A stretch of 36,399 nucleotides of DNA, taken from Gemmatimonadota bacterium (GTDB lineage: Bacteria > Gemmatimonadota > Gemmatimonadetes > Gemmatimonadales > Gemmatimonadaceae). Location of the stretch: contig JANMLN010000108.1 of assembly GCA_031372565.1 (NCBI GenBank), positions 1-36,399 on the forward strand. The letters are read 5' to 3'. Below the pieces are notes generated by a model, which did no database searches, was not told the origin of the DNA, and worked only from the letters and a program-made list of their open reading frames with translations. Both the position numbers and the translations under genes were made by a program. Positions 2,422 to 31,470 of this stretch are shown here, one piece after another. Each line of letters opens with the position of its first letter. Positions within the stretch are counted from its first letter, which is position 1.

Positions 2422-3018
2422 ATGAACCCGCGCTCGTTCGCAGTGGCCGCCGCCATTCTCATGGCCGCCGCCAGTCCAGCCGCCGCCCAGACATACGGTT
2501 TCGATTCCCTGACCTGCGGGTCTGGAGCCGGACTCGGCACCTATCAGGGCTTTACCTGGGGCGGGTTCCTCTGCTACGACGCCACGATCCCGACGGGCTT
2601 TCCCAACAACCTGAACAACGGCGTCGTCTCGCTCAAGAACGTCATCTACAACCGCGGCGGCACTGGCTCATTCATCGCGCGCGCCACCTCGTTCAACCTG
2701 ACGAGCGCGTACGTGACGGCCGCTCGGTCGAACTACCCCGAGATCTATCGCTTTCGCGCCATCAGCGGCGGCTCGCAGGTCGGCTTCGTCGACGTCACGA
2801 CGGGGAATGCGGCGCAACTCGTCTCGTTCAACTTCGCCAATATCGACAGTGTGGTGCTGGCGAACATCAGCAACCCCAGTGGGAACGCGGGCGTCGTGAT
2901 CGACGACATCACCTTCGACGCCCCCTCGAGCAGCGTGCCGGAGCCGGCGTCGGTGGCGCTCGTCGCGTCCGGGCTCGTCGGTGTCGCCGTTGTCGGGCGC
3001 CGCCGCCGTCGTCGCTAG
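2422..3018 (+). CDS. PEP-CTERM sorting domain surface protein
   Basis: Signal peptide MNPRSFAVAAAILMAAASPAAAQ; C-terminal VPEPAS + TM helix + RRRRRR; GGAG upstream of ATG 2422. Confidence 0.92.
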   Translation: MNPRSFAVAAAILMAAASPAAAQTYGFDSLTCGSGAGLGTYQGFTWGGFLCYDATIPTGFPNNLNNGVVSLKNVIYNRGGTGSFIARATSFNLTSAYVTAARSNYPEIYRFRAISGGSQVGFVDVTTGNAAQLVSFNFANIDSVVLANISNPSGNAGVVIDDITFDAPSSSVPEPASVALVASGLVGVAVVGRRRRRR

Positions 3019-3055
3019 TGCGCGGCACCGCTCATCCACACCCCAGCCCAAGCGC

Positions 3056-3727
3056 ATGCGCCTGACTGCGTTCGCCACCGTCCTCACCGGCTCGGCGCTC
3101 CTCCTGGCCGCTACGGCCCCGTCGGGTGCCCAGACCTTCAGCAACAAGTCCGCTTTCCTCTCCGCGGCCGGTAGCCCGTCGTACACCGAGACCTTCGAGA
3201 GCGTCCCGATTGCCAAGGACGCCAACTATTACGGATCGTTCACCAAGAACGGCATCAGCTACGCGCCGAAGGCGGGCGTACCCGGGCACAACCTGTACGT
3301 CAGTTCGCCCGGGTACACCAACTTCGGTGCAGGAATCGGGGCAACCACCTCGAGTATCCTCACCTCCAACGGCGATGAGTGGTTCCGCCTGACCTTCGCG
3401 TCGACGGTGTACGGCTTCGGTCTCGATGCGTACTACAACGGCCTCGGACCGACGACCACGTCGTTCTTCAACGGCTCGACCCTGCTCGGCAGCGTCTCGT
3501 ACAACGGCACGGCGATGATCGGATTCGCCGGGTTCCTCTCGTCCAGCTTCACGCCGATCACCGCCGTGGAGTTCCAGTCCTCGCGGGGCGGTACACTCAA
3601 CACGGGCATCGATAACGTCATCATCTACGATGCGCCCACCTCGTCGGTCCCCGAGCCCGCCTCCCTCGCGCTCGTAGCGTCGGGGCTCGCAGCGGTCGCT
3701 CTCGTCGGGCGTCGTCGACGTCGGTAG
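3056..3727 (+). CDS. PEP-CTERM sorting domain surface protein
   Basis: Signal peptide MRLTAFATVLTGSALLLAATAPSGAQ; C-terminal VPEPASLALVASGLAAVALVGRRRRR. Confidence 0.92.
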   Translation: MRLTAFATVLTGSALLLAATAPSGAQTFSNKSAFLSAAGSPSYTETFESVPIAKDANYYGSFTKNGISYAPKAGVPGHNLYVSSPGYTNFGAGIGATTSSILTSNGDEWFRLTFASTVYGFGLDAYYNGLGPTTTSFFNGSTLLGSVSYNGTAMIGFAGFLSSSFTPITAVEFQSSRGGTLNTGIDNVIIYDAPTSSVPEPASLALVASGLAAVALVGRRRRR

Positions 3728-22473: not shown

Positions 22474-25017
22474 GTGCGGCTGACGCCTGCCGCCCGCGAG
22501 GCGATTCGCGCGAACGTCTTCCTGGCGGGCGGACGCGAAGTGTGCTTCGTCGGTACGCTCGACGCGGACGGCGACGTGGCGGCCGTGCGCGTGGCCGCGC
22601 GTGGCGATGTCTCCAGCGTGCTCGCGCTGCCCGGATTCGCTCGGCGGGGCGAGTTGCTCATTCACAACCATCCGTCCGGTGTGCTCGATCCGAGCGATGC
22701 CGACCTGATGGTGGCCGCGCCGATGCACGACAACGGCATCGGCTTCGCGATCGTGAACAATGCGGGCACCGAGCTGTACGTCGTCGTCGAGGTGCCGGTG
22801 GCCGCGGCGGTCGTGCCGCTCGACCTCGCGCTGATCGACGACGACCTCGGTCCCGGTGGCGCCGTGGCGCGCCGGCATCACGATTTCGAGGACCGCGCGT
22901 CGCAGCGCGACATGGCACGCGCGGTCGCGGGGCTCTACAACGACGGTGGCGTGGGGCTGATCGAAGCGGGGACCGGCGTCGGCAAGTCGCTGGGCTACCT
23001 GATCCCGGCGCTCCGGTGGAGCGCCCAGAACGGCGAGCGCACGATCGTGAGCACCAACACGATCAACCTGCAGGAGCAGTTGGTGGCCAAGGACCTGCCG
23101 TTCCTCGCGCGCGCACTCACCGACCAGCCCGTGCGGTTCGTGATGCTCAAGGGATGGAGCAACTACGTGTGCCTTGCGCGGCTGGAGCAGGCCGATGCCG
23201 CGGGGACCACGCTCCTCGAGGACGCGCAGACGGAGGAGGTGCGACGGCTGGTGGAGTGGGCGGCGCGGACCGGCGACGGCTCGCGCGCTGATCTCGCCAC
23301 GCCGCCACGCCCCGAGGTATGGGACGAGGTCGCGGCCGAACCGGACCTGTGCCCGCGCATGAAGTGCCGACACTTCGATGCCTGTTTCCTGTTCAAGGCG
23401 CGACGCGCCGCCGCCAATGCGGACGTCATCGTGGTGAATCACGCGCTGCTCATGGCCGATCTCGCGGTGCGGCGCTCGTCGCAGAACTGGACCGATGCCG
23501 CGGTGCTGCCTGCCTTCAACCGGCTCATCGTGGACGAGGGGCATCATCTCGAGGACGCCGCACTCGAACGGTTGGGCTCGAGCGTGAGTCGCCGGAGCGT
23601 GGACCGGCTCTTCAACCGGTTGGAACGCAAGAACCGCGGCCTGCTGCCCACGCTGTACGGCAAGCACGAGGAACTGCTCAAGGCATCGAAGCAGGGCGAT
23701 GCGCTGCTGGAAGCGAGCCAGGTGCTGATCACGCGCCAGCTGCTGCCCGACGTGCAGCGCGGCCGCGACAAGGCCGGGCTCCTCTTCGACATCCTCGCGA
23801 CGCTCGTGACCGACGGCGGAGCGCCGCAGCTGCGCCTGACCGATGCGTTTGCCGATGCACCGGTGTGGGCGGCCGGCCTCGAAGTCGCCGTCGCCGACGT
23901 ACTCACGCTGCTGGCCTCGCTCGCCAGCGGGCTTGACGAGCTCAAGCGGCGCTTGAGCGCCGACACGAAGCGCGAAGAGCAGTTGGCCCCGCTGCTCGGC
24001 GAGGTGCGCGCCACGGTGCGACGGCTCGAGGGATCGGGCGACGCGCTGCGCCGCGCGCTCAAGCCGGAGCAGGGCGAGGGGGCGCAGGTGCGCTGGCTCG
24101 AGTTCCGTGGGCGGCCGAGCGAGAGCAATGTCGTGGCGAGTGCGGTACCGCTCGATCTCGAGCAACTGCTGCGCGATGACCTGTTCGGCCGACTGACCAC
24201 CACCGTGATCACGAGTGCGACGCTGACGGCGGGAAACAAGTTCGAGTTCACGCGCGGCCGGTTGGGGCTTGCGGCGCTCGATCCGGCGCCCGTGGAGCAT
24301 CAGCTCGCGTCGCCGTTCGACTACGCGCGGCAGGCCGTGCTGGCCATTCCCACGGACCTGCCGGCGCCGAACAAGGATGCCTCGGGCCATCGCCATCGAT
24401 TGGTGACGATCCTCCTCGACCTGATCGCGGCGAGCGATGGCGGCTGCTTTGCGCTCTTCACGAGCCACCGCGAACTGCGCGAAGTAGCCGCACGACTGCG
24501 CGACGAGGGGGTCGAGCGTCGCTGGCCGCTGCTCGTGCACGGCGAAGGATCGCGCCACCAGCTGCTCGATCGCTTTCGCGAGAGTGGCGATGCCGTGTTG
24601 CTCGGCACCTCGAGCTTCTGGGAAGGGGTCGACGTGCCGGGACGCGCACTGCGCGCACTGCTCATCGCCAAGTTTCCGTTCCGTGTGCCCACCGAGCCGA
24701 TCACGGCGGCGCAATGCGAACGGTTGGAGGCGCGCGGCGAGGATCCGTTCCGCAGCTACATGCTCCCGCACGCGGCGCTCTCGCTCGCGCAGGGATTCGG
24801 GCGCCTCATCCGATCGCAGACCGATCGCGGCGTCGTGGTGCTCGCCGACCCGCGCGCGGCATCGACCGTGTACGGGCGGGCGCTGGTGCAGGGATTGCCA
24901 CCGGCGCGCCGAGTCGTGGGGGCGTGGGCCGATGTGCGGGAGGAGCTGGCGTCGCACCTCGCGTTGCCGTCCGGTCGCGCGGCCCTCGTGCGCGCCGGCG
25001 AAGCGATCGGTCGCTAG
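22474..25017 (+). CDS. DinG/YoaA-family Fe-S helicase with N-terminal JAB/RadC-like domain
   Basis: EAGTGVGKS, LQEQL, four Fe-S Cys (NYVC..LCPRMKC...AC), DEGH, FWEGVD, QGFGRLIR; N-terminal REV...HNHPSG..DPSDAD. Confidence 0.92.
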   Translation: MRLTPAAREAIRANVFLAGGREVCFVGTLDADGDVAAVRVAARGDVSSVLALPGFARRGELLIHNHPSGVLDPSDADLMVAAPMHDNGIGFAIVNNAGTELYVVVEVPVAAAVVPLDLALIDDDLGPGGAVARRHHDFEDRASQRDMARAVAGLYNDGGVGLIEAGTGVGKSLGYLIPALRWSAQNGERTIVSTNTINLQEQLVAKDLPFLARALTDQPVRFVMLKGWSNYVCLARLEQADAAGTTLLEDAQTEEVRRLVEWAARTGDGSRADLATPPRPEVWDEVAAEPDLCPRMKCRHFDACFLFKARRAAANADVIVVNHALLMADLAVRRSSQNWTDAAVLPAFNRLIVDEGHHLEDAALERLGSSVSRRSVDRLFNRLERKNRGLLPTLYGKHEELLKASKQGDALLEASQVLITRQLLPDVQRGRDKAGLLFDILATLVTDGGAPQLRLTDAFADAPVWAAGLEVAVADVLTLLASLASGLDELKRRLSADTKREEQLAPLLGEVRATVRRLEGSGDALRRALKPEQGEGAQVRWLEFRGRPSESNVVASAVPLDLEQLLRDDLFGRLTTTVITSATLTAGNKFEFTRGRLGLAALDPAPVEHQLASPFDYARQAVLAIPTDLPAPNKDASGHRHRLVTILLDLIAASDGGCFALFTSHRELREVAARLRDEGVERRWPLLVHGEGSRHQLLDRFRESGDAVLLGTSSFWEGVDVPGRALRALLIAKFPFRVPTEPITAAQCERLEARGEDPFRSYMLPHAALSLAQGFGRLIRSQTDRGVVVLADPRAASTVYGRALVQGLPPARRVVGAWADVREELASHLALPSGRAALVRAGEAIGR

Positions 25018-26006
25018 CGCTCGCCGGAGGGCGGCACGTCGGAGGCCGTCGACTCGATCCGGAAGCTTGCCGTCGCGATCGCGCGACTCCCCACCGGAAT
25101 GCTCGCCAGCCACCGGTTGAGCGCGTGCAGGTTGCCCCACACCGTCTCGGCGTCGCGCGCCGACGCAGCGGACTTCGTGCCGTCAAAGGTGATCGGCTTC
25201 GACGTCGCGACCGCGAGGAAGTAGTCCACTTCGCGCGTCCGGCCCGGGGGGAGCTCCGGCTCGAGTTTGAGCGTCTTCTGCAGGCGCGCGGGGGGCACCA
25301 TGCGCGCGACGCCCGCCATGAGCCGCGCGTCGGGATCGTGCTCGTTCGGCCACACGAGCTGCACGCTGTCCTGCGTGACCCAGAAGAGCGAGAGATACGC
25401 GTTCTTGGTGCTCGTGATCGTCGCGATGACGGCGTCGGCGGAACCATCGGCGCGCACCAGGTACGAGGGCCGGTCCGTGGTGACGGTCAACTTGAAGGTG
25501 TAATCGGGCTCACCCTGCTCGCAGACGACGACGGCTGACAGCGACGCCGCGAGGAAGTTCACGCGACCCTCGGGTTCGACCTTGTAGACGATGTCCTTGG
25601 TATCGACGACGCGACCGCGCGCCGTACCGGACACGATCGACACATAGCTGTCCGTCAAGGTGCCCTTGCCGGCTTCGGACGCCACCCGTTGTTGTGATGC
25701 ATCGATGCGGGTGCCGACGACCGTGCGAACGGCCTCGGCCATCGCCTGCCGCATCGCCTCGGCCCGCGCCTCGGCCATGGTCAGGCGATCGTCGAGGAGG
25801 ATGCGTGCGGTCGCGGGCACGGTCACGGGGCCCTTGGCACACTGCGCCGAGGGCGCCGTCGCTGCTGCCGTGGGAGCGCGTTGTGCGGTGAGCGCGTGCG
25901 GGCTCGACGCGAGCGCGACGCTGACCCACGCAACAACGCCCCGCACGCGCGCGATCGCACGTGCGGGGCTTGAAACGAGGCGGACCACGGTCGATCCGCT
26001 TGGCAT
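25014..26006 (-). CDS. Exported protein with LPP20/FlgT-N-like domain and DUF4384 domain
   Basis: EARAEAMRQAMAEAVRTVVGTRI (FlgT-N/LPP20-like); TDRPSY...AYLSLF..DSVQLVWPN (DUF4384-like); signal-like segment ending ALTAQ. Exact start uncertain. Confidence 0.72.
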   Translation of the reverse strand: MPSGSTVVRLVSSPARAIARVRGVVAWVSVALASSPHALTAQRAPTAAATAPSAQCAKGPVTVPATARILLDDRLTMAEARAEAMRQAMAEAVRTVVGTRIDASQQRVASEAGKGTLTDSYVSIVSGTARGRVVDTKDIVYKVEPEGRVNFLAASLSAVVVCEQGEPDYTFKLTVTTDRPSYLVRADGSADAVIATITSTKNAYLSLFWVTQDSVQLVWPNEHDPDARLMAGVARMVPPARLQKTLKLEPELPPGRTREVDYFLAVATSKPITFDGTKSAASARDAETVWGNLHALNRWLASIPVGSRAIATASFRIESTASDVPPSGER

Positions 26007-26014
26007 GCCGTGAC

Positions 26015-26542
26015 TCAGAAGCCGATCGAGAGGCCGGCGCGGACCTGCGTGTTCCAGCCGCCATTGTCGCCGTTCAGCTTGTAGCCTTGGGCGCCGATGT
26101 CGAGCGCCAAGCCACTGGTCAGACCGATCAGGATACCCGTGCCGCCGCCGTACGAGATCTCATTCAATTCGGACGACCCGAACCCGGTGGCGGAGATCTT
26201 CGCCGTCGCACGACCGACCCGGCCCGCGACGTACCAACCCACCGTCTCGGTGCCCGCGAGGACGATGCGCGGCTCGATGAAGATGTCGCTGTACTTCAGG
26301 CTGAGCAGCGGATCCTCAGGGAAGAAAATCTGCATGTAGCCGAGACCAACCGAGACCCGTCCGAAGGAGAATCGTACCTGACCCTCGGCACCGGGCCGCC
26401 ACTCGGTGTCACCGTCCAACTTGAAATACAACCCCGATGCCTGAATCGACACGGTACTGCTCGACTGCGCGACTGCCGCGCTCGGCGCGGCGACCACGAG
26501 GGCCGGAAGCACGAGCGTACGAAGGAGACGACGAAGCGACAT
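26015..26542 (-). CDS. Small outer-membrane beta-barrel protein
   Basis: Signal peptide ending AVAQ; alternating amphipathic strands; C-terminal beta-signal RAGLSIGF. Confidence 0.82.
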   Translation of the reverse strand: MSLRRLLRTLVLPALVVAAPSAAVAQSSSTVSIQASGLYFKLDGDTEWRPGAEGQVRFSFGRVSVGLGYMQIFFPEDPLLSLKYSDIFIEPRIVLAGTETVGWYVAGRVGRATAKISATGFGSSELNEISYGGGTGILIGLTSGLALDIGAQGYKLNGDNGGWNTQVRAGLSIGF

Positions 26543-26577
26543 GATGGAATGACCTCTGGTGAGAAGTGAGACAAGCG

Positions 26578-28080
26578 CTACGGGAGGTTCAGCACGTCGA
26601 CGAGCACCGCCGAACCCGTGGCACCGCGTTCGGTGATCAGCGAAATGTCGCGCGCAATGAGATTACCGAATGGCCCCTTCCACTCGAAGGCCACGACGGC
26701 GCGCGCCGCACCCGGGAAGGTGGCCGGCTCCGCCAGCACGATCTTCGCGTTCGGCTTGTACTTGCGCAAGAAGTCGAACGTCTTGTTGCGCGTCGAGGTG
26801 GACGCGCTCTCCTTGAACCGCGCCACGAATTCGTCATACTTGCGCGCGGTGAGGAGGTTCGTCAGCTCCTGCGCGAGCGACATGGCCAGATCGAAGGTCA
26901 CCGCCGTGGTCGGCGTGCTCGGTGCGCTCACCGGTGGTGTCACCGCAGTGACGACCGGTGCTGCTGCGGCTGGGGCGGTCTTGACCGCCGCTGCGCCGGT
27001 CGATCCTGCCGCACCGGTCGCGGCAGCAGTGACGGCCCCGGCCGCACCAAGCACGGCGCCCGCTGTGCGACTCCCCGCTTCATTGCCAACGGGCACGGCC
27101 TTGTCAGCGGTCTTGCGCACCATCGTGATCGGCTTGGGTTCAGGCGCGGCCCCCCTGGCTGGCATGTCCACGAACTTGCCGACGGCAAACAACCCGAACA
27201 CCCGCGATGAGTCTCGGGTCTGCAACTGCGTGTCCTGGTCGAGATTGCGCGCGCGACCGGCGTAGAAGCGCACGTTCTCGCTCACCACATCGTGCAGGGT
27301 GCCGAGTGTCACCTTGTCGGGCTGCTTGGCCGCGAGTTCCTGGATGCCCTTGAGCAGGAAGTAGGTGAAGGCACCGTGCTGCTTCTCCTGGTGCCAGACC
27401 GCCATCTGGTTGTTCGATGCGGCGAGCAGCGCCGCCGTTCCCGTGGCCGCGACCACCGGATTCGTCACGCGGAGTCGTCCGCCCGATGTTCCCGTGTACA
27501 GACTGCCGCCCTCGGAGAGCCCGGAGAAGCAGGCGTCCATCATGACCGTGACCGAGCGGGCACCGAGCAGCGAGAGATTCTTGTAGAGCACGTCGACCGC
27601 GAAGCCGGAGTTCGCCATGTCCGACGGGTCCCCGTCCACAGGGACGAGATAGGCATTCGACGTGCGCAGATCGGGCGCGCCGTGTCCGCTGTAGAAGACG
27701 AACACATCCGACTTGCCCGGGCGCAGCATCCGCTTGAGCTTCGCATTCGGGCTCTCGGCCGACCCGAAATAGCTGCGCATCTGCCCCTGCGTCGCATTCT
27801 CCAGGTAGACGATGTTGGTGGAGTCGAGTCCCATCGCGCTGATCAGGTACGCGCGCACGGCCCACGCATCGCGCTCGGCGAAGTCGACGGCGGGCAGCGT
27901 CTTCTGCAGGTAGTTGCGGTTGCCGATCACGATCGCGACCGCGTCCGGATTGGCGGTGCGGGCGACCGGCACTCGCGTCAGGAGCTCGTCGCGGACCTGT
28001 GCGGTCAGCGTGAACGGCGCGAGCGCCAGTGCGGCCATGCCGAGCGCGAGCGCCCGGGCGCGTGTCGGCATGGTGTCCAT
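26578..28080 (-). CDS. Exported caspase-family (peptidase C14) protease with Ala/Thr linker and C-terminal domain
   Basis: AIVIGNRNY, FYSGHG (His), MDACFSG (Cys), HGAFTYFLLKG; signal peptide ending LTAQ. Start at ATG 28080 (GAGGA RBS); alternative GTG 28119. Confidence 0.9.
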   Translation of the reverse strand: MDTMPTRARALALGMAALALAPFTLTAQVRDELLTRVPVARTANPDAVAIVIGNRNYLQKTLPAVDFAERDAWAVRAYLISAMGLDSTNIVYLENATQGQMRSYFGSAESPNAKLKRMLRPGKSDVFVFYSGHGAPDLRTSNAYLVPVDGDPSDMANSGFAVDVLYKNLSLLGARSVTVMMDACFSGLSEGGSLYTGTSGGRLRVTNPVVAATGTAALLAASNNQMAVWHQEKQHGAFTYFLLKGIQELAAKQPDKVTLGTLHDVVSENVRFYAGRARNLDQDTQLQTRDSSRVFGLFAVGKFVDMPARGAAPEPKPITMVRKTADKAVPVGNEAGSRTAGAVLGAAGAVTAAATGAAGSTGAAAVKTAPAAAAPVVTAVTPPVSAPSTPTTAVTFDLAMSLAQELTNLLTARKYDEFVARFKESASTSTRNKTFDFLRKYKPNAKIVLAEPATFPGAARAVVAFEWKGPFGNLIARDISLITERGATGSAVLVDVLNLP

Positions 28081-28115
28081 GGCGGTCCTCGCTGCAGTGT
28101 GCGCGGCGCGGTGGA

Positions 28116-28721
28116 TCACGGCGCCCCTCCCGTGAGCTTCGCGACCTCGGCTTCAAGGTCCTTGAAGGACTTCGACGTCCGCGCCTGCGTGAGCAGCACC
28201 TTGTTCGCCTTCACTTCCTCGACGAGTTCCTTCTTCGTCGAGGCCATGGGCAACTCCATCAGGACGTACACGCGGTAGCCGTCTTCTTCGGCGTACCACT
28301 GCTGCTCGCGCAACCGCGAGCCCACGAGCACCTGCGACACCACGCTCTTGGTCGTCTGCTCGAACTGGCTCACGGCTTTCGCCTTGGCACCCGTCTCCTT
28401 CATCTCGCCGGCGAAGCGCTTGGTCATCCCCTCGAGACGCGTGTTCATCTCCTCGCCCAACGTGAGCCGGCCCTGCAGGCGCGCCTTGTCGAGCGCCATC
28501 TGCAGGTCGGACGCCGTTGCCGTCGCGGTCACGAGCACGAACGCCGTGTCCCGCGGCGGTGAGAAGAACCAATCGGGCGCGGCGTTCAGCGTCCCCTCAC
28601 GCTTGGCCTGCTTGGTCTGCTTGCCCGATGCGGCGGTGCTATCGGTGCCTTGGGCGCCGCCGACGACGAGCGGTGCGAGAACGAGGGCAAGCAACAGGGA
28701 GGCGGTGCGGGCGAGCGGCAT
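28116..28721 (-). CDS. LPP20-like exported protein
   Basis: APDWF, S.DLQMALDKARLQGR..L, YRVYVLMELP; signal peptide without a lipobox Cys. Confidence 0.7.
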   Translation of the reverse strand: MPLARTASLLLALVLAPLVVGGAQGTDSTAASGKQTKQAKREGTLNAAPDWFFSPPRDTAFVLVTATATASDLQMALDKARLQGRLTLGEEMNTRLEGMTKRFAGEMKETGAKAKAVSQFEQTTKSVVSQVLVGSRLREQQWYAEEDGYRVYVLMELPMASTKKELVEEVKANKVLLTQARTSKSFKDLEAEVAKLTGGAP

Positions 28722-28782
28722 GGTGGTGGCTCCGGCGTGACGGGCGAGACGAACGACCAGGTGATTCTAGCGAGCGGTGCGA

Positions 28783-30576
28783 TCAGCAGCCCAGGTCGGC
28801 AGCCGTGCCGCGGATGGCCTGCGCGACGGGAAGCGCGCCCGCGATCTTCTCGGCGCGCGAGTACGTGGTGCAGGCGGCGGCCTTGCGGCCCATGGACGCC
28901 AGTGCGCGTCCACCTTCGAACAGTACGGCGGCGGAGTCCCGTGCGGAGCCGGCCCGATCGAGCAGGCGCCCGCTCAGCTTGAGCGCGTCCATGAGCGAAT
29001 CCTTGCCTTCCGCGCCAGCGAGCGTTTCAAGGCGGGCAAGCTCGCCGGCGAAGCCGTCGGTGCGCGCCGGCTTGACAGGCTCCGGATCTGCACGCTTGAT
29101 GGGCGCGGTTGTGGGGGCCGCAGCAGCCGACGACGGCGCAGCGGTTGTGGGTGCCGCACTCGGCGGCGCCTGTGCGGTCGACGGCGCGTTCGGTTGGGTG
29201 TTCGGCTGCGCGACGGTGCCATTGACGGACTTCGACATGGTCTCGACCCCGCCGGAGGTGGCGCTTGCGACCGTGGGCGTCTGAGCAGACCCCGCCAATG
29301 GCGTGTTCACGATGGGCACCGCGGAGGCGTCGGTGACCGGCGATGCCGCGGGTTTCTGCAGGAGTGCGAAGGCCAGCGCGCCGACCAGCACCGCGGCCCC
29401 GCCACCGATCGCCACCATGCGGCCGCTGCCGCCAGAGCGGGCCGGAGCGGGCGGGGTGTGGGCAGCTGGCATCGGAGGTGCGGCGGGGGTGACCAGCGAC
29501 GGCACGTCGAGCGCTGTCGGGGCGATGGCACCGCCACGGACGACCGTGGGCGGAATCGCGTTCAGCACGTCTTTCGACGAGAAGACCTGCGTCGCGATCT
29601 CGGCCGATGCCACATCGCTCATGGAGGCGCTCGCCCTGCTGAATGCCTCGGCGAACGCGACCACGGACTCGTAGCGCTGCGCGGGCTTCTGCGAGAGTGC
29701 CCGCTCGAGCACCCCTTGCAGGTCGGTCGGCCACGGGACGTCGCTGCGCACCTGCGTGAGCTGCCGCGCCCGCCCCGTGAGGCGCGAGGCCACCTGATCC
29801 AGCCCGGTTTCACCCTCGAAGGGCAGAGCGCCCGTGACCATCTCGAACGCCGTGCAGGCGAGGGAGAACTGGTCGCTGGCTGCATCGATGGAGCTCCCTG
29901 CGACCTGCTCGGGGCTCATGTACGCGGGGGTGCCGACGGTGAGGCCGGTGGTGGTCACGCGCTGGTCGGCGGCGCCGACGACCTTCGAAATCCCGAAGTC
30001 GACGAGCTTCACGCGATCGCTGCCGTCCGACAGGCGCGCCAGCATGATGTTGTCCGGCTTGAGATCGCGATGGACCATGCCGACGTCGTGGGCCGCCTTG
30101 AGGGCATCGGCCGCCTGACGAATGATGACGGCCGCGCGTGGCGCCGGCATGGAGCCGCGATCGTGCAGCATCTTCGACAGCGGCATCCCCTCGATGAACT
30201 CCATCGAGATGTACAGCGCGCCGCCGTCTGCCTCGCCGAACTCATACACCGTGGCGACGTTCGGATGATTGATCTGGCTCGCGTTGCGCGCCTCGCGGGT
30301 GAACCGGCTCACCGCGTTGGCTTCGCTCGCGACATCAGGGCGCATGACCTTGAGCGCGACGCTGCGCCCCATGCGCAGATGCTCGGCGAGATAAACCTGA
30401 CCCATCCCGCCCTCGCCGAGCTTCTTCAGGATGCGATGGCCCGCAATGATGTCACCGACACCCAACTCTTCCGCCTGCGGTACTTCGAGGAGTGCGCCGT
30501 CGGTCGGACAGAACGTTCGATTGGCCTCGAACGTCGCCTTGCAGATCGGGCAGAATTTCTGCGGCTGGGTCGTCAT
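28783..30576 (-). CDS. Membrane-anchored Hanks-type Ser/Thr protein kinase
   Basis: N-terminal CPIC...CPTDG ribbon, GEGGMGQVY, VALK, HRDLKPDN, DFG, GTPAYMSPEQ; TM helix VAIGGGAAVLVGALAFALL; Pro/Ala/Thr linker; helical C-terminal domain. Confidence 0.94.
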   Translation of the reverse strand: MTTQPQKFCPICKATFEANRTFCPTDGALLEVPQAEELGVGDIIAGHRILKKLGEGGMGQVYLAEHLRMGRSVALKVMRPDVASEANAVSRFTREARNASQINHPNVATVYEFGEADGGALYISMEFIEGMPLSKMLHDRGSMPAPRAAVIIRQAADALKAAHDVGMVHRDLKPDNIMLARLSDGSDRVKLVDFGISKVVGAADQRVTTTGLTVGTPAYMSPEQVAGSSIDAASDQFSLACTAFEMVTGALPFEGETGLDQVASRLTGRARQLTQVRSDVPWPTDLQGVLERALSQKPAQRYESVVAFAEAFSRASASMSDVASAEIATQVFSSKDVLNAIPPTVVRGGAIAPTALDVPSLVTPAAPPMPAAHTPPAPARSGGSGRMVAIGGGAAVLVGALAFALLQKPAASPVTDASAVPIVNTPLAGSAQTPTVASATSGGVETMSKSVNGTVAQPNTQPNAPSTAQAPPSAAPTTAAPSSAAAAPTTAPIKRADPEPVKPARTDGFAGELARLETLAGAEGKDSLMDALKLSGRLLDRAGSARDSAAVLFEGGRALASMGRKAAACTTYSRAEKIAGALPVAQAIRGTAADLGC

Positions 30577-30668
30577 CAGGGCGCACACGAAGAGGAGAGC
30601 TTCCCACAGGGAAAATCATGCGCGCATGGTGCCACCGTCAAGGCGCTTGCGGTCAGCTGAAACGTACC

Positions 30669-30700
30669 GCGGCCGGGTTCCGAGAAGGGAACCCGGCCGC
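30669..30700 (-). terminator. Hairpin after the Bor-like gene
   Basis: Perfect 13-bp stem GCGGCCGGGTTCC-gagaag-GGAACCCGGCCGC; only a weak T run follows on the minus strand. Confidence 0.6.
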
Positions 30701-30726
30701 GTCGTGGCCGCACGAGGTGCGGACGG

Positions 30727-31155
30727 CTATCGAACGAGATAGACCGCTTCGTGCGAGAGGCGCGAAGCCTCGGCGGCAATCTCGATGGCACGGGTCATCT
30801 CGGCCGCGCTCATGTCGTTGCGGACGACCATCGTCTTCGCGTTGGCGGGCAGGCTTCCCACCTTGCTCGACGCCGCGCAGGTCACGTCGATCTGCATCGG
30901 GGTGAAGATGCTGAAGGTGAGGGCGGATACCAGGCCATTCAAGAACGAGATCTGCGTCTCGACCTTCGCCACACCGTTCTTGCACTTGGACGCCGCTTCA
31001 ACGGTCGACGGCGGAATGAGGCCGTAGATGAACGACAGCGCCCACGGCTGGCTGATGACTTCGCTGCTGGCGGGCTGACCCGTCGTGATCGTGGCGTGAA
31101 AGCACCCGGTGAGGAGAACGGCGGGAAGGGCGAGAGCGGCTACAAAGCGACGCAT
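30727..31155 (-). CDS. Bor/Iss-family lipoprotein
   Basis: MRRFVAALALPAVLLTGC lipobox; FIYGLIPP..V.AASKCKNGVAKVETQISFLNGL...FTP....VTC; GGAG upstream of ATG 31155. Confidence 0.85.
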   Translation of the reverse strand: MRRFVAALALPAVLLTGCFHATITTGQPASSEVISQPWALSFIYGLIPPSTVEAASKCKNGVAKVETQISFLNGLVSALTFSIFTPMQIDVTCAASSKVGSLPANAKTMVVRNDMSAAEMTRAIEIAAEASRLSHEAVYLVR

Positions 31156-31470
31156 GCGGGGCTCCAGGAAACAGGTTTTCTTCAGGGGGGTACCTGCCAA
31201 CATCCGGCGATTATCGCAGCGTTCTCGACGAACCGCAAGGGACGCAAACGCATGGTGTTCAATGCGTTACCGTGGTAATCGGTGATGTACGTCACGTCAA
31301 TGGTCCCTATGTCGTGCATCTGGGACCGGTTCGCGGGGTGGACGGGGGGACGCAGTACCTGGGAGGCACTGGCGCCGTTCGCGCCGCTCCCGGCGCCCCA
31401 CGGTGCTGGTCAAGTCGGTGTATCTTTGGGGGTTATCGCTATTTCCGACTCACCCGACGCTCGCCCCTCC

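Follow-up and report, generated by a model that had tools for sequence, protein, structure and literature searches.

The five-gene block and its surroundings

Five adjacent genes at positions 25014..30576 of contig JANMLN010000108.1 from a Gemmatimonadota bacterium encode a receptor Ser/Thr kinase, a protein of the LPP20/FlgP type (LPP below), a caspase-like protease of family C14 that is predicted to be exported, a small predicted outer-membrane beta-barrel and an exported protein with the DUF4384 domain (DUF below; Table 1). The window analysed is the complete contig of 36,399 nucleotides (C68 in our set), part of a 4.4-Mb genome that is 96% complete, and the sequencing runs listed as containing this stretch are sediment metagenomes, with no RNA run among them. 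An earlier note on this DNA had suggested that the five genes form one trans-envelope apparatus coupling signalling to proteolysis, and its description of the locus was borne out: all five open reading frames lie side by side on the minus strand, the letters CTAG at 25014–25017 are common to the stop codons of the DUF gene and of dinG, which meet tail to tail, and identical limits of the block follow from the arrangement in congeners and from the hairpin after the bor gene. The composition of the block is that of a mosaic, consisting of a three-gene core (caspase, DUF and LPP) with an added barrel and an added kinase.

In the order kinase, LPP, caspase, barrel and DUF the genes are separated by 61, 35, 35 and 8 bp, and an alternative GTG start at 28119 would give a 4-bp overlap with the LPP stop codon. 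Contigs from independent assemblies bridge the junctions, one running from dinG to LPP and others joining LPP to the kinase and the kinase to bor (the run that holds the dinG–LPP and kinase–bor contigs may be the source sample of this assembly). In a strain of a second study the caspase gene has 9 listed differences, every one at a third codon position and 8 of them silent. The G+C content (GC) of the block genes is like that of the host (0.64–0.70 against 0.68 for the genome; 0.81–0.90 at third codon positions, GC3), and the idea of a foreign origin judged by composition was dropped because of this match. The consensus scan of the window found no sigma-70 consensus promoter; a weak candidate which that scan does not list lies upstream of the kinase (30634–30660, minus strand: TTGACG, 15 bases, CATGAT). 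The terminator scan of the window gave two terminator-like matches, both at chance level, and the bor hairpin is absent from its list.

Table 1. Features of the block and of its bor-side flank
Feature	Position	Strand	Evidence
Receptor Ser/Thr kinase gene, 597 aa	28783..30576	-	Pfam, motif inspection
LPP20/FlgP-type SHS2 protein gene, 201 aa	28116..28721	-	Pfam matches of orthologues, model
Exported C14 caspase-like protease gene, 500 aa	26578..28080	-	PF00656, catalytic residues
C-terminal domain of the caspase, aa 393-500, WKGPFG motif	26581..26904	-	profile alignment with receptor-kinase ectodomains
Small predicted outer-membrane beta-barrel gene, C-terminal Phe	26015..26542	-	ESM-Atlas features
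Exported SHS2 + DUF4384 protein gene	25014..26006	-	PF14326, model
Hairpin, 14 bp, directly after the bor stop	30668..30701	-	z -5.2 for 30650-30729
Bor-family lipoprotein gene, flank outside the block	30727..31155	-	Pfam; resident there in congeners

The caspase-like protease and predicted export of the four non-kinase proteins

The caspase is composed of a C14 domain, an Ala/Pro linker and a C-terminal domain. The first of these matches PF00656 in Pfam (E-value 9e-13; 48.9 bits, gathering cut-off 21.4) and has an intact dyad, H133/C184, within the motifs SGHG131 and DACF182. The catalytic Cys is kept in 91/91 domains, and so is the His, though the search pattern demanded the latter. D71, which aligns with the Asp of the metacaspase 'ND' motif, is invariant in 40 alignment rows, and an Asp or Glu two residues before the catalytic Cys (D182 in the window) is found in 136/146 sequences; we take D71 and D182 to be the acidic S1 residues responsible for Arg/Lys specificity. 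Since H133, C184, D71 and D182 are all retained and the nearest solved relatives are metacaspases, cleavage after Arg or Lys is predicted, and the sequence points to a periplasmic protease of this specificity. Cleavage after Arg/Lys is described for MaOC1 in a section of PMC7475262.

The earlier note had also noticed N-termini resembling signal peptides in the four non-kinase proteins. All four pass our own crude rule for signal peptides, as do 58/79 DUF, 41/52 LPP and 100/134 caspase orthologues, compared with 1305/3660 (36%) of the genome's genes and 5/58 of its kinases. Likely signal peptides in some bacterial caspase homologues are mentioned in a passage of PMC3501461.

The LPP20-like and SHS2-DUF4384 proteins

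The window LPP protein has no Pfam match and no clear match in NCBIfam; among five orthologues tested, three pass the PF02169 cut-off. The best PDB match of its model is Lpp20 of H. pylori (Foldseek, 5ok8: probability 1.00, E-value 0.012, TM(target) 0.56–0.64), and HP1454 is found among the further fold matches. The protein contains no Cys, and hence no lipobox, and carries a signal of the signal-peptidase-I type; a lipobox Cys is present in 31/52 orthologues. The idea that the barrel substitutes for the missing lipid anchor was dropped, since G437, a genome from another genus of the same family, has both the barrel and a lipobox-like LPP protein.

The DUF protein matches PF14326 at residues 191–271 (30.8 bits, cut-off 27), and its model (pLDDT 86) shows an SHS2 domain with a beta-hairpin insert at 100–128, followed by an Ig-like DUF4384 domain. 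Structural matches of the model include dodecin and the SHS2 domain of FtsA (Z about 7), a chain of the LPHT ring (Z 6.8) and, within the C. jejuni motor scaffold 9hmf, a chain of 106 residues (probability 0.99, E-value 0.007), which, to judge by its length, is probably FlgP. Part of PMC12222027 ties ring formation in the SHS2 FlgP/FlgT family to an insert at the position after the SHS2 helix. In the ring-forming subgroup this insert, placed between the helix and strand 2, makes a beta-hairpin; the DUF model has such a hairpin, whereas the LPP model has a helical insert.

A recurrent core of caspase, DUF4384 and LPP20 genes

Neighbours of the caspase were tallied in loci whose genes were called by our own codon-bias script, with approximate starts. 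Among 50 Gemmatimonadota loci from 47 genomes, many of which end early and are cut short, DUF was found within 6 kb of the caspase in 46, LPP in 41, a kinase in 6, any barrel in 3 and all five genes in 2 (L152, L155 and L169, from other classes or duplicate, and L165–L168, with split or weaker matches, were left out). The cross-phylum set (79 loci from the best 80 of 453 confirmed caspase matches) contains a DUF4384-type gene in 34 loci, LPP in 19, a transglutaminase-like gene in 10, a kinase in 3 and all five genes in 1, and the metagenome set (79 loci from the best 80 of 558 matches) contains DUF in 32, LPP in 11 and a kinase in 0. With the three sets pooled, duplicates being possible, the DUF gene directly adjoins the caspase in the same orientation in 82/111 DUF-containing loci. 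Thus the co-occurrence in other genomes on which the earlier note had made its proposal depend was found, the caspase, DUF4384 and LPP20 genes recurring widely across phyla. All five genes together occur elsewhere in one other genus only (L015, which is also L170, in G437), rearranged and at a different site, and the caspase subfamily itself is patchy (44/400 family genomes). A single-protein scan of the genome contigs found no relatives, an alignment query being required to detect them. No report of the module was found in the open-access literature searched; supplements and subscription journals, outside that scope, could hold a description.

Several of the related loci have further members. 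A second, diverged module in the same genome (L009, G000:C198, 5308–14918) comprises a kinase with the two-Cys ectodomain described below, LPP, DUF4384, a transglutaminase-like gene, the caspase and a Big_1/RCC1 gene, followed by another kinase. Mostly in Bacteroidota-related phyla (L016, L020, L047, L053, L054, L057, L063) the core is joined by a protein of about 500 aa that has no Pfam match and, by eye, a transglutaminase-like Cys/His/Asp pattern. Some modules adjoin LpoB together with a conserved envelope protein of 440–500 aa (L047, L159, L178) or an MltC-like transglycosylase (L017, L021, L221, L255). A tandem protein with two LPP20 domains, laid out like FlgQ, stands beside the LPP gene in L015, L021, L047, L053, L092 and L172; the window has none.

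The barrel and the C-terminal domain of the caspase

The barrel has no Pfam match and no clear NCBIfam match, and the word-index protein search with it returned only the barrel itself. Its neighbours by ESM-Atlas features are outer-membrane protein beta-barrels (0.98), and the ten best named matches all fall in one clan (10/10; the PF13505 clan was tested). It is orthologous to the barrel of G437 (35%) and has relatives in 53/351 genomes. In 23 fetched loci of such relatives a core partner was seen in 0, a kinase close by in 10 and a different caspase in 2.

The caspase shares its final 108 residues with the G437 caspase and with membrane proteins resembling those of Gemmatimonadota, and this stretch matches a profile of four kinase tails and three other caspase tails (hhalign probability 93.6, E-value 2e-7). 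By this profile comparison the caspase tail is a member of the ectodomain family of Gemmatimonadota receptor kinases. The tail-domain profile has matches in 106/351 genomes, and the 27 carriers called in a set of 30 loci include 18 kinases and 4 caspases. The fold signal is weakly SnoaL/NTF2-like, with a weak SnoaL_4 match in 1/10 members.

The tail domain was located within 15 kb of 32/59 barrels and within 200 bp of 9/59; without the 8 genomes that seeded the profile these values are 23/50 and 3/50 (rough chance estimate about 1%). The carriers that adjoin barrels, in both orientations, are kinases (G036, G011, G316, G644), members of two caspase subfamilies (G000, G437, G608, G628) and one non-kinase protein (G432). 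Within the caspase subfamily only 2/240 distinct proteins possess the tail, and the same two alone have this family of barrels in their locus. A partnership of barrel and ectodomain was not found in the open-access literature searched.

In a conserved Gemmatimonadaceae cluster (L315–L318, L321, L360) a barrel is divergent from an ECF-sigma-like (extracytoplasmic function) gene and a TPR kinase, mostly followed, by eye, by FHA-like, kinase and PP2C-like genes; the last kinase of the cluster bears the domain of the caspase tail, and in L360 the barrel directly faces the FHA-like gene. This ECF/FHA/kinase barrel cluster is a candidate for a signalling system of its own. At L313 and L314 the tail is carried by exported caspases from another subfamily, with barrels of the present family and Ig-like lipoproteins on their flanks, and no DUF4384 or LPP20 gene is found there.

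The receptor kinase

The kinase matches PF00069 in Pfam (E-value 4e-47). The earlier note had reported intact motifs and one transmembrane (TM) helix, and both were confirmed, with GEGGMG54, K76, E95, HRDLKPDN169, DFG193 and SPE221 all present and a single hydrophobic segment at about 388–406. The protein starts with a CPxC..CP motif, followed by the kinase domain, the TM helix, a low-complexity stalk of Ala, Pro, Ser and Thr, and a TPR-like helical C-terminal domain with two invariant cysteines, Cys569 and Cys597, which are likely to form a disulphide. The best NCBIfam match, NF033483, covers the kinase domain and scores 274 bits against a cut-off of 450; PASTA repeats are absent. The word-index protein search with the C-terminal half of the kinase returned only the protein itself.

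Four modules of three genomes (the window, L009, L010 and L015) begin with a co-oriented kinase gene whose product has this two-Cys ectodomain; the caspases of the other kinase-headed modules are 37–44% identical to that of the window, and the gene order differs. Other receptor kinases lie within 6 kb of modules L154 and L176. The kinase count among the Gemmatimonadota loci (6/50) is about equal to the background, as 389/3670 other genes (10.6%) lie within 6 kb of one of the 58 kinases of the genome. The end-domain profile has matches in 21/401 genomes, and 25/25 non-self loci have no module gene within 1.5 kb; the neighbours there, named by eye, are FHA/PP2C genes, TssM-like genes and Ig/RCC1 proteins. 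A kinase subtype specific to the module was dropped as a proposal because of these other contexts, and a tree of 125 residues, itself weak, does not unite the four module kinases in a clade. The proposal that the kinase-linked caspases form one clade was likewise dropped, as they make up an unsupported basal grade. No peptide conserved between a cognate kinase ectodomain and caspase was found in the comparison of module pairs. On balance we regard the kinase as an optional gene, repeatedly kept in first position.

Two side observations concern related kinases. An operon in the same genome (L014, G000:C116, 3060–8552) contains a kinase whose two-Cys ectodomain is of a divergent form; its neighbours, judged by eye, are FHA-like and PP2C-like genes, and it is likely to be a housekeeping relative of the module kinase. 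Receptor kinases at L029 (400–2988) and L080 (3565–5472) lie close to caspases with C-termini that, on inspection by eye, resemble DUF4384.

The insertion site

In the congener G003 dinG and bor stand tail to tail with 135 bp between them, and in other congeners the interval between dinG and FAH is occupied either by 2–3 small barrels or by a WD40-like protein and a kinase with a barrel on each side of the pair (2/5 of the congener loci in this comparison end at contig ends). These dinG–bor arrangements, together with the strong hairpin after bor, identify the five genes as one block inserted in a variable slot. The hairpin probably ends the bor transcript and would separate bor from the block; bor as a sixth member was rejected, as it is resident at this site in congeners and is then followed by the hairpin after its stop. 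Across the genus the dinG–FAH interval (25018–31470 in the window; L202, L203, L205, L207, L208) is a slot of varying content that takes up exported proteins; it holds barrels, bor and, in G005, a WD40-like protein and a kinase. Elsewhere in the window (2422–3727) a tandem pair of short exported proteins is encoded between ribosomal-protein genes and a gene for a YchF-like GTPase (named by eye).

Proposed function and alternatives

The reading that we favour, at roughly an even chance, is that the block encodes a periplasmic protease on a scaffold of two SHS2 proteins, docked to the barrel by a domain of the receptor-kinase type and processing exported proteins, with the kinase as an accessory. 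From the genes, residues, models, homologies and linkage described above we infer the binding steps, the oligomer, the substrate and co-transcription as follows. The LPP20-like and SHS2-DUF4384 proteins would assemble into joint oligomers by way of the insert that follows the SHS2 helix, in the manner of FlgP/FlgT rings, and the Ig-like DUF4384 domains of the scaffold may hold the protease or its substrates. The kinase-type tail would attach the caspase to the neighbouring barrel from the periplasmic side, and the scaffolded protease would process exported or surface proteins. The receptor kinase would be an optional add-on from the large kinase pool of the phylum, co-transcribed and possibly a substrate or a sensor, which the core does not need. 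Of the single five-part apparatus of the earlier note, the boundaries, domain calls, export and recurrence are retained, while the kinase is absent from most modules and the barrel, lying outside the core, is instead the partner of the caspase tail.

Several findings weigh against the scaffolded, barrel-docked protease. A ring scaffold shared by LPP and DUF is plausible, given the SHS2 domain with its hairpin, the matches to ring chains and the rule relating inserts to rings (in the part of PMC12222027 cited above), but the insert is helical, with no hairpin, in the LPP monomer model and the LPP and DUF profiles match weakly (probability 27, E-value 7e-4); moreover, the SHS2 Z-scores are below 8 and both Foldseek matches, of DUF and of LPP, have E-values above 0.001. 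As substrates we favour large Ig/RCC1 proteins, which were found near only 8/111 DUF-containing loci (with a narrow seed set), and no gene for one is present in the five-gene block. The dinG–FAH slot gathers unrelated barrels and a kinase in congeners. The concordance of tail and barrel in 2/240 caspases probably goes back to a single event, and the two barrels concerned are the ones from which the barrel profile was made. The barrel–tail counts, which include kin, are not independent, because much of the linkage at 5–13 kb appears to be one inherited ECF/FHA/kinase cluster, and 98/132 tail matches have no listed barrel within 15 kb (many of the contigs being short).

Could the five parts nevertheless form a relay across the envelope, in which the tethered caspase, switched on by a signal at the barrel, cleaves the kinase in its stalk or TPR-like ectodomain, or releases the ligand of the kinase, and so alters kinase output? 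This we regard as possible and doubtful. The first-placed, co-oriented two-Cys kinases of the four modules, whose caspases are 37–44% identical, agree with it, as do the other receptor kinases near L154 and L176 and the Arg-Gly sites present in all four module-kinase ectodomains. Against it, kinases are about as frequent near the Gemmatimonadota caspases as near other genes of this genome and are missing from all 79 metagenome loci (from the best 80 of 558 matches), the 25 other loci of the ectodomain lack module genes within 1.5 kb, the four kinases do not group together in the weak tree, and cognate ectodomains and caspases have no conserved peptide in common. A related proposal, to which we attach rather little credence, takes the barrel and the NTF2-like periplasmic domain as a modular plug of the Gemmatimonadota, reaching from the outer membrane to the cytoplasm and wired to either a kinase or a protease; here the caspase, on a FlgP-like ring, would cut the ectodomain of the co-encoded kinase, making a proteolytic trans-envelope relay of a type that is not known to have been described.

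Remodelling of the cell wall or envelope, with the core as a protease counterpart of the LpoB/Lpp20 lipoprotein clusters and its protease responsible for the turnover of peptidoglycan enzymes, as in NlpI-Prc, appears unlikely: the fold matches of LPP to Lpp20 and HP1454 would suit it, and among 206 caspase loci an MltC-like gene is near 6, LpoB near 3 and the conserved envelope family of 440–500 aa near 5, but such neighbours are rare and absent from the window block, and the patchy distribution of the module is unlike that of a core function of the cell wall. It is distinctly unlikely that the three-gene core alone is functional and that the kinase and barrel are passengers from a hot spot for exported proteins. 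The varying barrels, WD40-like protein and other kinase found in the same slot of congeners, and the 58 such kinases of the genome, would be expected on that account, but the barrel is the orthologue of that of G437 and is unrelated to the resident barrels of the slot, the whole set of five is found again in G437 at another site, and the tail accompanies the barrel in carriers of different kinds. That the block serves in defence against phages or in cell death, with the caspase killing or disabling the cell, is very improbable. The patchy distribution, the insertion at a variable site, generic PADLOC matches of the kinase and caspase domains and the regulation of defence by periplasmic caspase-like domains in DdvA (in part of PMC11506125) could be cited for it; however, 4/6 proteins have no PADLOC match, the two matches cover common catalytic domains only (PD-T4-6, MADS and CBASS caspase, whose partner genes were not found), no defence gene occurs among the annotated recurrent neighbour families, and the flanks are housekeeping genes.

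Relation to known systems

The component families are known, and neither their combination nor the partnership of barrel and ectodomain was met with in the open-access literature searched. With orthocaspases and metacaspases (MaOC1; AtMC4, AtMC9 and Yca1 among solved structures) the caspase shares the His-Cys dyad and the acidic S1 pocket, and differs in being exported, in having DUF4384 on a separate SHS2 protein, in its LPP20 partner and in its kinase-type tail. As in the FlgP/FlgQ/FlgT disk and ring proteins and H. pylori Lpp20, the modelled fold is SHS2 and its helix is followed by an insert, and a FlgQ-like tandem relative is found in several modules; in contrast to them, the block has no flagellar genes and includes a protease, the model of LPP gives a helical insert, and rings are here a proposal. 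NlpI-Prc and LbcA-CtpA are S41 serine proteases with TPR lipoprotein adaptors in the periplasm, which resemble the block in combining a periplasmic protease with an envelope scaffold, whereas the window has a C14 cysteine protease with SHS2 and Ig-like partners. By analogy, the block would work like a scaffolded periplasmic protease, yet it falls outside these systems. PknB-like kinases have the same succession of kinase, TM helix and ectodomain, and the window kinase has a two-Cys TPR-like ectodomain in place of PASTA.

DUF4384 is described as an accessory domain of orthocaspases in a section of PMC7475262, and an operon of this make-up is absent from the orthocaspase descriptions in the passages of PMC7475262 and PMC3501461. 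According to part of PMC11506125, DdvA of Myxococcus xanthus is a TPR-CHAT anti-sigma protein with an incomplete active site and a periplasmic caspase fold. The DdvA–DdvS pair thus also ties a periplasmic domain of caspase fold to transmembrane signalling, whereas the window has a complete C14 enzyme and a Hanks kinase, and no sigma factor in the block.

Implications

To our knowledge, the job of most bacterial caspase homologues is unknown, and the exported ones do not fit the usual account of cell death. The block gives names to conserved partners of exported caspases, the LPP20-like and SHS2-DUF4384 proteins, and with them DUF4384 and the non-flagellar FlgP-like proteins gain a testable role. 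A second partnership is that of a barrel family which adjoins one family of ectodomains, whether these are carried by a kinase or by a caspase. If it is true that the tail domain binds the barrel, many receptor kinases of the phylum would gain a partner in the outer membrane.

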